From assembly GCA_964016885.1 (NCBI GenBank), contig OZ024743.1, forward strand, positions 158,968,001-159,032,000: a stretch of DNA of 64,000 nucleotides, given 5' to 3'. The notes below the pieces were generated by a model. It did not search any database, was not told the DNA's origin, and saw nothing but the letters and a program-made list of their open reading frames with translations. Each line of letters begins with the position of its first letter. Within the stretch, counting starts at the first letter, position 1. The DNA comes from Eledone cirrhosa (Eukaryota). This document shows, piece after piece, positions 23,181-50,081 of the stretch. The position numbers and the translations under genes are program-made.

Positions 23181-24703
23181 CCTCTATGTATATAATTAAG
23201 GTTTACATCATTATCCAATGATTTCCATCTCGTTACTAACAATTTACTCAACAAATTCATTTCCAGCGTACACAAGTGACCAAATGTAAGGCAGCATTCC
23301 CAGCCAGAAGCCCACGAATATATATATATATATATATATATATATATGGAACGAAAAACCTGTTGAAGAAGGGAAATCACCGCTCCATCTTAGGATTACC
23401 GACTTGCATATACGTTACGTAACTTGAAGTGTAACTTACGAATTCCCAGAAACCTATCGAAGATATTTATCGACTAATATCTAAGGATCAGGTCCAGGTT
23501 CGTCTTTAACCTGTCTTTATTTTTCGTTGTTGTAGTCTTAATGTAACAACATGCCTCTGGTTGCATCTTTCATTGTGTCACTATTACTTAATTATTATAT
23601 TCACTCCGAGGAGTCATTTCTAAATTACTTTATCACTGAGTGCTTCGGGACAGTGTCGAAATTCAATCGGATGCGAATCTGCTAATTGCAGCTGCAACTT
23701 CGTTTATACTCATTACTGTTATATTGTTATATATATGTATATATATATATACAGAGAGAGAGAGAGAGAGAAAGAGAGATAGTAATATATGAGGTTATAG
23801 TGTAATGCTTCACTATTTTCATTGGTAAGATGAGTGAAGCTCAATTCACATTTTTACCCTTCATTCTTCAGGAGTGAATAATTATAGTAGCAGGGCATTT
23901 ATAATTCAACATTTAATAAGGCCAATATTATTATTATTTATATATACATCTACCGTCGTTTCAACGCGACTAGGAATTTTCAAATGTTTCTACGTTAAAA
24001 GGATCAGTAAAATAATACGCACTGCAATTTATATCATGAAAACATCCTTTATAACAACAAAAAGAAAATAGAAAATTATTGAACATTTAAAATTCGATTC
24101 GGGGATTGCTTGTAAAATAAAAACTGTTGGTATGAGGTTGTCCCCGAATCAAATTTTCAATTTTCAATTTTCTATTTTCTTTTCCCTATCTTCCATTATA
24201 TGTTTGGGTTCAACGTAATCCCGTTAAGTAATTCCATGGATAACGCCTGGTGAGATCGTCCTGTCTTGTATGATAATTGGATGATGCGTTAATGAAACAT
24301 GTACAGTGATTTCACAGCATTAAAATTCTAAAGCTATATTTTCCAGTCTGGCCTTCAGTTGTTGTTTAATGAATACTTTACTCCGTTTCTGCACCAACCA
24401 CTGGATGCCACATCTACGATGGATGACCTGCATAACGTTGAATGTTTTAAATAATTTGTAATTTGTTTCATCATTGTTTCCCAACCAGAACCACCAGTTC
24501 TATCCACTGGTAATCAAAGTGGCTTGAACGGTATATATATATATATATATATATATATATATATATATATATATATATATATATATATATATATATATAT
24601 ATATATATATATATATAGTACGTTATTCCGGGTTGAATCGGAGGTAACCACAGTAAGTAAGGTACTCAATACATAGCAGAGTATAAAAGTTTTAATATAG
24701 ATG

Positions 24704-24754
24704 AGATTCTACAGGACTAGAACTGTTTCATTCTTTAGAAATCATCAGGAATCT
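24704..24754 (-). ncRNA. Type I hammerhead ribozyme (family C terminus)
   Basis: agattc-CTGATGA-tttc taaa gaat-GAAA-cag ttctagtc ctg-TA-gaatct. Confidence 0.85.
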
Positions 24755-26337
24755 GGGTATCAAAAAATAAACATGGTATTTATAGGTCTCTACAAGTGGT
24801 AGGAGAGGGTGGGGAGTGGGATGGGTGTAGGTCATTGGTTGATAGAAAAGAGAATTCATTAAAAGCTAATTCTACAAAGCTATAGTTTATTTTTATTAAT
24901 TTTTGCTTTTAGAGTAACAAAGGCAGACAGAATTCTATAAACAGGTTCCGGATGGCATACCATTCCTTGTCATGAAGTTTCTCTTAAGCTAACAGATGTC
25001 TATAAGATCAGTGGGGGGTCAGTCATGGTAGATAGAATTAAAGGAAAGGGAGATTTTTTAAAAGCTAAGTTCATTAAGGTTCTACTAAGTGACAAAGGTT
25101 TAGAGAATTCTGTAGACAGATTCAAAATACTGAGTGCATATCTTACAATTATCTTCGAACTTCTCTTAAACTAATCAAGTATATGCCAAAATCAACGGAC
25201 ACATTCACAAAAAAACACACTCACTCACACACTCGCGCGCAACCATAAACACACATACACATACACATATACACACATAAAAACACACACACAATATAAA
25301 TATATTTATATACACATATATACACACACACATATATATATATATATATATATATATATATATATATATATATATATATATATATAAATATATATATATA
25401 TATATATACACACACACATACATATATATTCACACACACACACACACATATATACACATATATATACACTTACACACATACATACATACACACAAATATA
25501 CATGTGTATACATATACATACACATACACATACATATATATATATATATGTATATATATATATATATATATATATATATATATATATATACATAAACAAA
25601 TATATACATATACATACACACACACACACACATACATATATATATATACACACACACACACATATACACATATATAAGGAAAAAGCACCATACATACACA
25701 TATATATATATATATATATATATATATATATATATATATATATATAGAGAGAGAGAGAGAGACACCATTCATACATATATTCATATATATATACATATAT
25801 ATATATATATATATATACACACATACACACACATACATATATACACAAATATATATATATATATATATATATATATATATATATATATATATATATATAT
25901 ACACACATACACACACATACATACATATATACACAAATACATACACATACATACACATACATACATATACACACACATATATACACACACACATACACAT
26001 GCATATATATAAATATGTATATATATATATATATATATACACACACACTCTCTCTCACGCACATATATATATATACATATATATATATATATATATATAT
26101 ATATATATATATATATATATATATATATATATATATATATACATACATATATATATATATATATATATATATATATATATATATATATATATATATATAT
26201 ATATATATGGAAAGTTATATTTAAATTGTTGGGTTACAACTAGTAAATATTTATAACTGATATAAAAGCACTCGACAAGTATTTGGAGTATATTTACAAT
26301 ATTAAATAAATGGAAACTATATTTATAAAACCATAAT

Positions 26338-26403
26338 TATTTCATTATATATATTTCAGGGATATCATATTAACAATATGCTATGCCTTCCTCAGACAAA
26401 ATA
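26338..26403 (-). ncRNA. Hammerhead ribozyme (family B, left arm)
   Basis: tattttgt-CTGAGGA-agg..cct-GAAA-tatata-TA-atgaaata. Confidence 0.75.
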
Positions 26404-27761
26404 CAATATAAACAGTTTTATAGATAAATAGATTTGACATACCGTAACAACATCGACTTGTATTTGAAAAGTTGATTTGGCAGTGAAAAAATTGTACACA
26501 GAGAGAAAGAAAGAGAGAAAAAAAGGAAAGAAAGACAGAAAACGAAGAAAAAGAAGAAAAAAGAAGAAATGCATGGAACAAAATAGAGAGATGGAAAGAT
26601 AGATAAAGAGAAGAACTTCATGTAAAGAAACAGAGAGAGAAATATATATATATATAGAGAGAGAGGAAATAGAGATCGATACATATATATAGAAAACTAG
26701 GTAGTGGGACGTCAGTTGAGTAAACGTATCAATGATACATTTATTTATTTATTTATTTATTTAGCTCTAGTATTAATGTAAGGGAGATATATGTGGTTAG
26801 AATAGAAACCAGCTGTTATATAGAGAGAAAAATTAAAAATAACCAGACATAGGCGAGGCATAAAAAAAAAAAAAAAAACCCTATGTTTTAATGTAGAGGT
26901 ATTCGTATGTATAAAAACCAGCCACTATATTGTAAATATCAGTATTCCTGAATGAGACATGTATCCATAATGTGTGAAAATGATCTTATGTTTAGTTTTT
27001 TCAAAAAATTCATATGTTTATGTGATAACTACAAACATCTATGTGAATTTATATGATCAACTCTGCAAACCCTAAATTCACGGAAAACATTCTCATTGTG
27101 CTATAATAATTTAAGTATACATATATGTGTATATATATACACACAAATATATATAGAGTCAATATTGCTACTATTCCTGTCTTTACTCTACAAGATTATC
27201 TATCAAGCAGAAATAGAGAGCAGATTTCAATATACTAATAAAAATATATATCAGAAACAAAAAATAACAATAATAATAATAATAAGTAATAATAAGATAG
27301 AAAACTAAAAAATATTACGAAAGAGTATTACATATTAAAAATATTACATATTAAAAATATTAAAAATAAAAATATTAGAAAATACTACAATAATAAAAAT
27401 AAACCACAAAGATCAACCCTTCAAAATTAATTGACAATATATTGCCAAGTTCATTATAAGCATCAGAGTCGAAAAACAGATAAAGCCAAAAATTATTTAT
27501 CAAATCGCATCTAGCAAAAATCATTTCAAAAAGTTTAGGATGCCCATTTGGTCTACATGTGTTCTTATATTTAATATAGAAGTTTATCAAGTGTAACGTT
27601 TATTCGAAATATTTGGAGCATCAACTTTTAGGGTAGCTTAATTTTTCATGAAGAATGTTTAAATAAAAATAAAAATAAAAATAAAAATAAAAAGAATAAA
27701 AAGAAGAAATCAAAGATTTATCGGCTAGTTTCCCATATAATTATAAATCAAACTAAATATA

Positions 27762-48151: not shown

Positions 48152-48383
48152 GGACAAAATGAAAACACACACAGGACAAAATGAAAACACACACACACAT
48201 AGAACAAACAACCAACCAACAATAAATAAATAAATAAATAAACAAATAGATAAATGAACACAAACACACACAGACACCCGGATGTGGCGCATGCGCAGAC
48301 TGAGCACACAACACACACACACAGAAACAAAATGGCGTAGGATAGAAGAAAGGAAAGGCACAGAAACAAAGAAAGGAATCCCC

Positions 48384-48428
48384 AGTCACTGAAGAGGTCA
48401 CAGAGTGTGTGACGAAAGGACTATGACT
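48384..48428 (+). ncRNA. Hammerhead ribozyme (family A, core CTGAAGA)
   Basis: Same motif as 43567-43611. Confidence 0.8.
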
Positions 48429-49325
48429 ATATATAAACAACTATCTGGTTGTGGAACCAACCAACCAACCAGAAACTTATAAGTTTGTAAATTTGTAAAT
48501 TTATAAATTTATAAATATATAATAAATTGAAGTGAAAGCAACTGGTGCGTGTGTTTCTTATTGGCAACATGACCTTCCCAAAGTATAACAATATCGGTTT
48601 CAACACACGATTTCAGATAAAAAATCTTGCTAAACAAATTCAGAAACGAAATATATATATATATATATATATATATATATATATATATATATATATATAT
48701 ATATATATATATATACATACATATATATATATAAATATATATATATATATATATATATATATATATATATATATATATGTGTGTGTGTATATGTGTATAT
48801 ATATATATATATATATATATATATGTATATATGTGTGTGTGTTAGGGGGGGGGGCTGCGCGCGAGTGTATGTATGAGTGTGTCTGTGAATGTGTCTGTTG
48901 ACTTTTGGAATAATTTTTAAGAGAAATTTGAAGATAATGGTATGATATGCCCTCAATAGTTTGAACTTATCTATAAAATTCTCTCGGCCTTTGTCACTAA
49001 GTAGAACCTTAAAGAATTAGCTTTTAAAGAATTTCCCTTTTCTTTAAATCCATTAACCATGACTGACCCCCAACGATCTTATAGACACCTGAAATATAGG
49101 CATTGTTAGTTTAAGAGAAAAATAAATAAGGAAAGGCACCCCATCCTGAACTTGTTTATAGAATTCTTTGTGCCTTTGTTACTCTAAATATAAATTATAG
49201 CTTTAAAGAATTAGCTTTTAATGAATTCCCTTTTCTATCAACAAATGACCACTACCCATCCCACTCCCTACCCTCTCCTACCACCTGAAGAGATCTATAA
49301 ATACCATATTTATTTTTTGATACCC

Positions 49326-49376
49326 AGATTCCTGATGATTTCTAAAGAATGAAACAGTTCTAGTCCTGTAGAATCT
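49326..49376 (+). ncRNA. Hammerhead ribozyme (C2 tailed terminus)
   Basis: agattc-CTGATGA-tttc taaa gaat-GAAA-cag..ctg-TA-gaatct. Confidence 0.85.
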
Positions 49377-50081
49377 CATCTATATTAAAACTTTTATAAC
49401 TCTGATATGTATTGAGCACCTTACTTACTGTGGTTACCTCCGATTCAATCCGGAATAACGTATATATATATATATGTACATATATATATATATGTGTATA
49501 TATATATATATATATATATATATATATATATATATATATATATATATATATATATATATATATATATGTATATATATATATATATATATATATATATATA
49601 TATATATATATATATATATATATATATATATATCAGTATATATATATATGTGAATATATATAATATATATGTATATATATGTATATATATATATATGTAT
49701 ATATATAATATATATATATATATATATATATATATATAATATATATATATATTATATATAAATATATATTATATATATATATATTATATATATATATATA
49801 TTATATATATATAAATATATATATTATATATATATATATATATATTATATATATATATATATATATATATATATATATATATATATATATATATATATAT
49901 ATATATATATATATATAATTGAACATACAAGAGAGATAAACATACATGTGTTCAATTGTAAAGGACCAGGTTTGCTAGAGTGAAAAAAATACTAACTTTA
50001 ACAATATGGTTTGCCAGACTTAATTTAAAGTAATAAATCAAGAAAGAGAATAAAAAACCTATATTGGGCAACTGCGTGAAA

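Follow-up and report, generated by a model that had tools for sequence, protein, structure and literature searches.

Penelope-like elements (PLEs) of the Hydra clade are marked by DKT and RWK motifs, a CxCX5C linker, hammerhead ribozymes, (TA)n targets and an endonuclease (EN) domain without CCHH residues (PMC8557442). Their hammerheads sit near the 3′ end (PMC8557442, File S2), Octopus bimaculoides is already known to harbor the clade (File S1), and an inverted 5′-truncated copy at the 5′ end together with a single-sided tail is standard PLE anatomy (PMC8557442). Here we describe family C, a predicted Hydra-clade PLE, in a window of 64,000 nucleotides from Eledone cirrhosa (assembly GCA_964016885.1, contig OZ024743.1, positions 158,968,001 to 159,032,000 of the forward strand; positions below count from the first letter of the window). 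The window holds two family C insertions, C1 on the minus strand and C2 on the plus strand. Between the coding end of each and a distal hammerhead unit (U1 and U2, together U) lie long TA/TG tracts, interrupted by the PLEs B, D and A2 and by a piece resembling a long terminal repeat (LTR), and these tracts are likely to be part of element C.

Family C resembles Hydra-clade elements, including Hydra-1_Obim, in its C-terminal GIY-YIG domain, its DKT and CxCX5C motifs, its ctgatgat...tgaa hammerhead near the 3′ end and its (TA)n targets, as well as in its inverted 5′-truncated arm and one-sided tail (PMC8557442). Unlike family C, Hydra-1_Obim has only ∼150 nt between stop codon and hammerhead (PMC8557442), and the six novel Hydra consensuses have short 3′ untranslated regions (UTRs) with no long microsatellite (File S7). 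Elements of the clade are generally below 3 kb (PMC8557442), a pattern that family C exceeds, its predicted 3′ UTR alone reaching 2.2–2.4 kb.

Elements that carry repeats are described outside this clade. Chlamys-1_pPol of Physarum inserts into (CA)n and carries ∼90 bp of (CA)n directly after its open reading frame (ORF) (PMC8557442, supplement), a record that we identified by eye by matching protein motifs to DNA; unlike family C it belongs to another clade, has an N-terminal EN, no hammerhead and a short pure repeat, and nesting in it is unreported. The examined portions of the main text of PMC8557442 contain no remark on its self-carried target. Penelope copies of penaeid shrimp hold simple repeats that moved with the element and were later elongated, and they have been proposed to expand the simple sequence repeat content of the genome; in contrast to the situation in family C, the repeat is not claimed in the parts consulted as the element's own target or as a site of nested insertion (PMC7878876). 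Like family C, PLE termini carry type-I hammerheads, often on opposite strands and 100–700 bp apart (PMC4209133), and the tail of Poseidon PAc, comparable to that of family C, has been explained by two internal start sites of reverse transcription in vitro (PMC11167929). In PAc, hammerhead and ORF start overlap inside a pseudo-LTR (pLTR) (PMC11167929, PMC4209133), whereas no pLTR tandem was seen in family C, in which the hammerhead lies far downstream of the stop. TA targeting, inverted arms, tails, hammerheads and transposable elements as repeat carriers have each been published, and their combination with nesting in a Hydra-clade element did not turn up in the open literature searched. Open-licence literature likewise gave no member of the Hydra clade that combines a target-like UTR of kilobase length with nested insertions; Repbase, Dfam or the O. 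vulgaris repeat library may hold family C.

Family C and its 3′ terminal unit

The layout of the locus was obtained by self-comparison of the window and direct reading of the sequence. B, C and D have related reverse transcriptase (RT)-EN ORFs, with C2 40% identical to B. A Pfam search of the three yielded no relevant domain match, and the assignment of family C to the Hydra clade therefore rests on motifs and homologs; the clade's reference proteins were compared with it by eye from the supplement of the paper. C2 appears to have had a single ORF with RT followed by a C-terminal GIY-YIG EN, an order pieced together across the frames of a broken copy. DKG is replaced by DKT (SSDKTKNFY in C2, ADKT in the consensus of homologs), and the CxCX5C linker reads CNCLNKEAC in C2, CNCRDRSKC in B and CNCTYPDNC in D. 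RWK is found in D as VRWK; both C copies are 5′-truncated and their N-terminus is gone. The EN core has one Cys in B. The sequence of C is VYKCDVISGTEDCKKTYIG; because it holds a second Cys, differently spaced, CCHH is cleanly absent in B but not in C. No close relative of C was present among 57 homolog matches (best, 48% identity). Among the matches to public sequencing runs that were listed, five of eight contained part of C2 (best share, 0.39), and none was an RNA run containing C2 sequence. Two proteins of Octopus (P0023 and P0024), misleadingly annotated as “GATA zinc finger domain-containing protein 14-like”, are fragments of this PLE RT.

A first-pass annotation of this DNA had placed a hammerhead unit at 24618–25240 (−) and 48855–49462 (+), and U1 and U2 were located there. 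Intact type-I hammerhead cores occur at 24748 (−), 33795 (+) and 49332 (+), and a further U copy at 34490–34552 (−) has an altered core, CTAATGA. A script located the core and the three stems. The motif follows the ctgatgat...tgaa pattern published for Hydra hammerheads, and the sister unit at 60353 shows two compensatory pairs in stem I; U is thus predicted to carry a canonical hammerhead near its 3′ end. The stem II region differs in length among the families, measuring 93 nt in D, 31 nt in B and 12 nt in C.

We regard U, with high confidence, as the 3′ terminus of C1. Inverted U sequence is joined to inverted C coding sequence at 33733, where the two share CACC, and at 34550–34552, where they share TCA; the fusions that the annotation had put at ∼33733 and ∼34551 could thus be read directly. 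Over 124 positions, the U fragment in the C1 arm has one difference from U1, which lies 9 kb away, and five from U2, and all four sites in this arm that separate U1 from U2 match U1. The tail of U1 (24618–24686, ∼65–70 bp) is missing from the C1 inverted arm. The coding ends given by the annotation, 33114 (−) and 37190 (+), are the equivalent position in both copies, and the divergence of coding sequence between C1 and C2 (59/595) is concordant with that between U1 and U2 (64/619 aligned sites; Fisher p = 0.85). Both insertions have TA runs at their outer flanks, on four of four sides.

A scan of the ∼170 nt after the C stop found no hammerhead core. In related marine loci (80 fetched, 31 families, some stops being assigned from partial copies), a hammerhead lies 82–516 nt downstream of the stop (median, 153) in 42 of the 69 that have an ORF 3′ end, and 42 is a lower bound because the scan missed some visible cores. 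Among the 15 of 29 joints listed from public sequencing runs, at least three further joints connect C and U in the same polarity (33291>33751, 33452>33748 and 33464>33788). Arm identity, concordant divergence, clade anatomy and these joints together support U as the 3′ terminus of C, as the annotation had proposed. For C2, the inverted arm has 11 of 371 mismatches against the sense copy, and its U part differs at 1 of 63 positions from U1 and from U2 alike.

Several results weigh against this view of U. The 63-bp U part of the C2 arm contains no site separating U2 from U1, and the C2–U2 link, which we infer, therefore rests on orientation, divergence and anatomy. The three extra joints come from one sample (runs X1 and X2 being the same), in single contigs of depth 5–18; their shorter side measures 26–30 letters, with 80% likeness, and they were flagged as unreliable. 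An Rfam search of the window returned no gathering-level match and no hammerhead model, its E-value matches being microRNA models on TA repeats, and the hammerhead is not the minimum-energy fold (z = −0.23). Summed depth in public runs is far higher over the hammerhead than over the coding sequence, a sum over contigs that includes sister families and has no copy-number meaning. Head-to-tail hammerhead joints from 33851 to 33775–33777, a step back of 75–78 bp, occur at high depth in X1 and X2, and the same joints are present in raw reads of run X6 (13–15 starts). The hammerhead part of the C terminus seems to exist also as a ∼77-bp tandem, a retrozyme-like family, and these joints and the higher depth indicate that it multiplies without the ORF too. 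In the window, a search for the tandem arrangement of a retrozyme found U1 and U2 each single and fused to C coding sequence through the arms.

An exact search of metagenome contigs with a 37-nt hammerhead stretch gave no match, and ARAGORN found no gene in the window. GCGCGC occurs at 25235 and 48857; it is also present at one further locus in the window (53707–53711) and was rejected as a clade-wide UTR mark, being found in 4 of 28 family representatives against 2.2 expected (3 of 31 families, with the stop assigned from a partial copy, were left out). At the C1 junction, 33646–33735 forms a hairpin, and a 12-bp unit is repeated four times at 33663–33711, at the turn of the inverted junction, possibly as RT stutter at the fold-back point.

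The TA/TG tract and competing accounts of the locus

All tract pieces of C1 and C2 are TG-polar in element sense (Table 1), in agreement with the matching polarity that the annotation had read in these microsatellites. The pieces total 1533 bp in C1 and 1779 bp in C2. Their mosaic index is 12.5 steps per 100 bp in either copy and 12.6 in the uninterrupted internal tract of D, compared with a pooled 4.0 (range, 0–9.3) in 20 tracts outside C. Both tract boundaries are common to C1 and C2 (∼10% diverged), and their conserved edges grade into TG/TA-like sequence. The small repeats of B are mirrored in its two arms, and repeats therefore travel in the RNA of this clade. We conclude that the tract is likely to belong to C and was probably carried in its RNA, at a length that may approach the present one. 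The distance from stop to hammerhead is ∼880 nt in D, ∼1370 nt in B and, including the tract, ∼2.2–2.4 kb in C, and a long 3′ UTR may thus be the variant feature of family C.

Other data argue against a tract carried by C. The window contains no uninterrupted C copy, both copies being broken by nested insertions. The C2 target flanks are also long (364 and 455 bp) and TG-polar, with mosaic indices of 9.3 and 2.8, and long polar tracts are therefore not confined to the UTR. Interrupted k-mers (k = 14) do not single out the C1–C2 pair: 14 are shared by C1 and C2, 14 by C2 and outside tracts and 2 by C1 and outside tracts. None of the 42 related marine loci has a TA/TG tract between stop and hammerhead, a baseline that is biased because short-read contigs break at long repeats.

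Taken as a whole, the account that we favor, and consider reasonably probable, is that of an element C with a tract-bearing RNA that later received nested insertions. Family C would be a (TA)n-targeting retrotransposon whose RNA has the order ORF, ∼170 nt, TA/TG mosaic tract, ∼480 nt, hammerhead and tail. Reverse transcription from two start points at the 3′ end, by analogy with Poseidon in vitro, would give one copy with a tail and one that is inverted and lacks it, and the inverted arms of C1 and C2 would have lost their middle at 3–4-bp microhomologies, which would fuse U to coding sequence. Copies long enough to include the ORF would deposit the tract, and with it (TA)n runs of the kind targeted by PLEs of the Hydra and Neptune types; B would later have entered the C1 tract, and D, A2 and the LTR-like piece the C2 tract. 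Such a tract would act as a landing pad by mass action, offering more target with no extra attraction.

A different origin of the tract length has to be considered, in which U is still the terminus of C and the RNA carried only a short TA/TG seed, the 1.5–1.8-kb tracts having lengthened at the locus through slippage and through duplication of the target with each nested insertion, so that the host built most of them. The uninterrupted tract of D is only ∼380 bp long, and its TA runs reach 17 bp at most; the C2 target flanks amount to ∼820 bp, that is, insertion sites themselves become long; the first piece after the C2 end is 23 bp of TA, whereas that of C1 is mosaic; and repeats elongate after Penelope transposition in shrimp (PMC7878876). 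Nevertheless, C1 and C2 have similar tract totals and mosaic indices despite one insertion in the former and three in the latter, and host tracts away from the cluster do not exceed 250 bp, and we hold growth in place to be unlikely.

With C1 as described, the span 34490–49462 could instead be a chimera, in which a deletion between microsatellites, or a mis-assembly across repeats, brought together C2 and U2 of two separate insertions, and D, the LTR-like piece and A2 did not all enter one element. The C2 arm without a diagnostic site, the LTR-like piece cut at a TA run, the difficulty of assembling repeat-rich DNA and the lack of read support in four runs for the window junction at 33681–33732 are compatible with this, but the C2 pieces have a uniform polarity and mosaic index, U1 and U2 have diverged as much as C1 and C2, and A2 is younger than C2, which makes a chimera quite improbable. 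Least probable, and only slightly below the chimera, is that U is a retrozyme-like, non-autonomous partner distinct from C, the two having inserted independently into long host TA/TG tracts and the fusions being template jumps between two RNAs: the head-to-tail joints in X1, X2 and X6, the hammerhead-only palindrome at 60218–60483, an opposite-strand joint at 33792 and the proposal that retrozymes are non-autonomous PLE derivatives (bioRxiv 10.64898/2026.07.22.740005) speak for it, but the arm matches the correctly oriented U copy and not the other one, divergence is concordant, the boundaries recur twice, C is otherwise without a hammerhead, and short 3′-only copies are expected from 5′ truncation.

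Nested insertions and the landing pad

The two C insertions span 24.8 kb, of which nested pieces make up 16.2 kb and tracts 3.3 kb. The data support the nesting of B, D, A2 and the LTR-like piece in the tracts between the C coding ends and U (Table 1), and the sizes given by the annotation for the three PLEs (6.3, 4 and 5.2 kb) agree with the 6331, 4059 and 5246 bp measured.

Table 1. Features of the C1 and C2 insertions, with positions in the window
Feature	Position	Strand	Remarks
(TA)n target flank of C1	24532..24617		pure TA, 86 bp
U1, predicted 3′ terminal unit of C1	24618..25240	−	hammerhead core 24748
C1 3′ UTR (likely), TA/TG mosaic tract, distal part	25250..26208	−	+ strand TG 5 / CA 140
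B, Hydra-clade PLE	26209..32539		6331 bp; 5′-truncated palindromic insertion
C1 3′ UTR (likely), TA/TG mosaic tract, proximal part	32540..33113	−	+ strand TG 2 / CA 87
C1 ORF 3′ end and ∼170 nt unique UTR	33114..33690	−	EN domain, frameshifted; 59/595 from C2
C1 inverted 5′ arm	33691..33856	+	∼44 bp inverted C coding and 124 bp of U, core 33795
C2 left target flank, TA/TG	34126..34489	+	364 bp, TG 18 / CA 1
C2 inverted 5′ arm	34490..35196	−	63 bp of U, mutated core, then inverted C coding
C2 5′-truncated broken RT-linker-EN ORF and ∼170 nt unique UTR	35197..37190	+	DKT, YRDD, CxCX5C
C2 UTR tract (likely), first piece	37191..37213	+	23 bp TA
D, near full-length broken Hydra-clade PLE	37214..41272	+	4059 bp
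C2 UTR tract (likely), second piece	41273..41613	+	TG 38 / CA 0
LTR-like piece and tRNA-Trp primer-binding site	41614..42193	+	580 bp; putative LTR
C2 UTR tract (likely), third piece	42194..43404	+	TG 196 / CA 6
A2, Neptune/Nematis-type PLE (by motifs)	43405..48650		5246 bp inverted pair
C2 UTR tract (likely), last piece	48651..48854	+	TG 13 / CA 2
U2, 3′ terminal unit attributed to C2	48855..49462	+	hammerhead core 49332; tail to 49462
C2 right target flank, TA	49463..49917	+	455 bp

The palindrome of B is centered at 29417/29418, with the tail on the left and the tailed copy on the minus strand. It has hammerheads at 26395 (−) and 32441 (+) and an open 550-aa RT-EN remnant at 29420–31072, and among 27 homologs of its protein three are named, two from Octopus (46 and 41% identity over 38–48% of the query) and one from a coral. 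D has an inverted 5′ arm of ∼480 bp, broken at 37323–37491 by a short repeat, an internal degenerate TA/TG tract (40300–40680), a hammerhead at 41012 (within 41003–41135), and a tail at 41168–41272. The short repeat, at 37391–37510, may resemble an octopus short interspersed nuclear element; it recurs at 50568–50688 in an element described below.

A2 consists of a 3.4-kb copy on the minus strand and a 1.8-kb tailed copy on the plus strand (tail, 48594–48650). Since the tail-less copy is longer than the tailed one, simple fold-back of one cDNA is ruled out, and the structure fits two separate priming events. Its RVT_1 and GIY-YIG matches are below cut-off. The other copy, A1, shows a CX4CxxC linker (CIDKTCITC) and, in GIY-YIG, CTEGQC and EH..QH..EH; a CX2-5CxxC linker and, in GIY-YIG, a Cys pair with His residues are described for Neptune/Nematis (PMC8557442), and by these motifs family A is probably a PLE of that type.

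The LTR-like piece starts with TG, and all 18 letters of its primer-binding site (PBS) match the Rous sarcoma virus (RSV) PBS consensus, with a whole-model score below gathering. The match continues along the tRNA to ∼42 nt, compared with the usual 18 nt, presumably as far as the anticodon of tRNA-Trp, and the piece then stops at a TA run. Self-comparison of the window gave no second copy, and no internal part is left. What the annotation had called an LTR is therefore inserted in the C2 tract as an LTR-like piece with a PBS, neither a solo LTR nor a whole LTR element.

Mismatches between arms are 13/3123 in B, 11/1765 in A2, 7/491 in D, 1/124 in C1 and 12/434 in C2, and A2 is thus younger than C2 (p = 0.0005); such arm clocks could be biased by conversion between arms. 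The annotation's sequence of two C insertions followed by B, D, the LTR and A2 stands with respect to nesting and to the age of A2. Two points count against the full sequence of events: the remaining arm ages are compatible with nesting without being statistically separated (C2 versus D, p = 0.17; C1 versus B, p = 0.42), and the LTR-like piece, ending shortly after its PBS, requires an extra, later deletion within the C2 span.

By hand tally, four insertions lie inside C tracts and at least 14 border on TA runs in the rest of the window, and insertion density per base of DNA is higher in C tracts (p = 0.047). Attraction of insertions beyond TA content was rejected: per (TA)6+ base, C tracts would be expected to hold 8.4 of the 18 insertions and hold 4, a deviation toward fewer insertions (p = 0.056), in a comparison in which C tracts are younger than host tracts. 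The landing pad is therefore passive, adding target and attracting no better than host (TA)n; the annotation was right that insertions sit in the tracts, but a special landing pad is not supported. B, D and A2 each have their tailed copy in the direction of the host C, in three of three cases (p = 0.125), and a strand preference of nested insertions is a lead only. No insertion of C into C was found in the window.

More tentatively, a self-feeding loop may be envisaged, in which the kilobase TA/TG 3′ UTR of octopus Hydra-clade PLEs (C, and D in milder form), copied with every long insertion, would supply fresh target with a strand orientation, both to these PLEs and to other elements that seek TA, and build up nests of PLEs and a measurable part of the simple repeats in the genome; we consider this doubtful. 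In O. vulgaris, PLEs amount to 6.83% and simple repeats to 7.45%. If C carries its target, the microsatellite bias of PLEs would be partly self-made, and the share of cephalopod simple-repeat and PLE load arising inside PLE UTRs would become testable. In repeat libraries that stop at microsatellites, the ORF piece of such an element would be separated from its hammerhead unit, which would be left as an orphan, and the coding end would be taken for the terminus.

Other elements of the window

The window DNA is AT-rich, with numerous dinucleotide repeats, and 209 bp of unique sequence (33917–34125) separate the two C insertions. Adjoining the C2 right flank, an inverted-repeat element at 49918–50988, which also contains the short repeat of the D arm, has a CTGAAGA hammerhead-like core seen by eye and missed by the scan. 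At 60218–60483, a short palindromic insertion in (TA)n belongs to a sister family of U (22/168 from U1), with a hammerhead on both arms and the tail on the right, and is a 3′-only copy sharing the C anatomy. Mini-palindromes in (TA)n with hammerheads on both arms also occur at 57701–57950 and 63387–63780, the second being a 3′-only copy of family B. A small repeated family, often palindromic beside (TA)n, is found at 12116–12770, 17755–17812, 58058–58145, 58723–58921 and 63125–63353, and its GAAA-stem-GTC motif may be part of a hammerhead.

A1 (6713–11246) has an inverted arm and differs from A2 at 81 of 3343 positions, and 59005–59978 is an older A-like 3′ fragment of ∼72% identity. Decayed PLE-like remnants at 53866–55520 and 55575–57400 flank a TA run, with a hammerhead-like core near 55400 recognized by eye, and 22288–23060 was likewise judged by eye to be decayed DNA-transposase-like sequence. 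Beyond the window, a related marine element (L054:2414–2750) has a degenerate GGTGGTT-type tandem repeat in its 3′ UTR, another repeat-bearing UTR of the clade.

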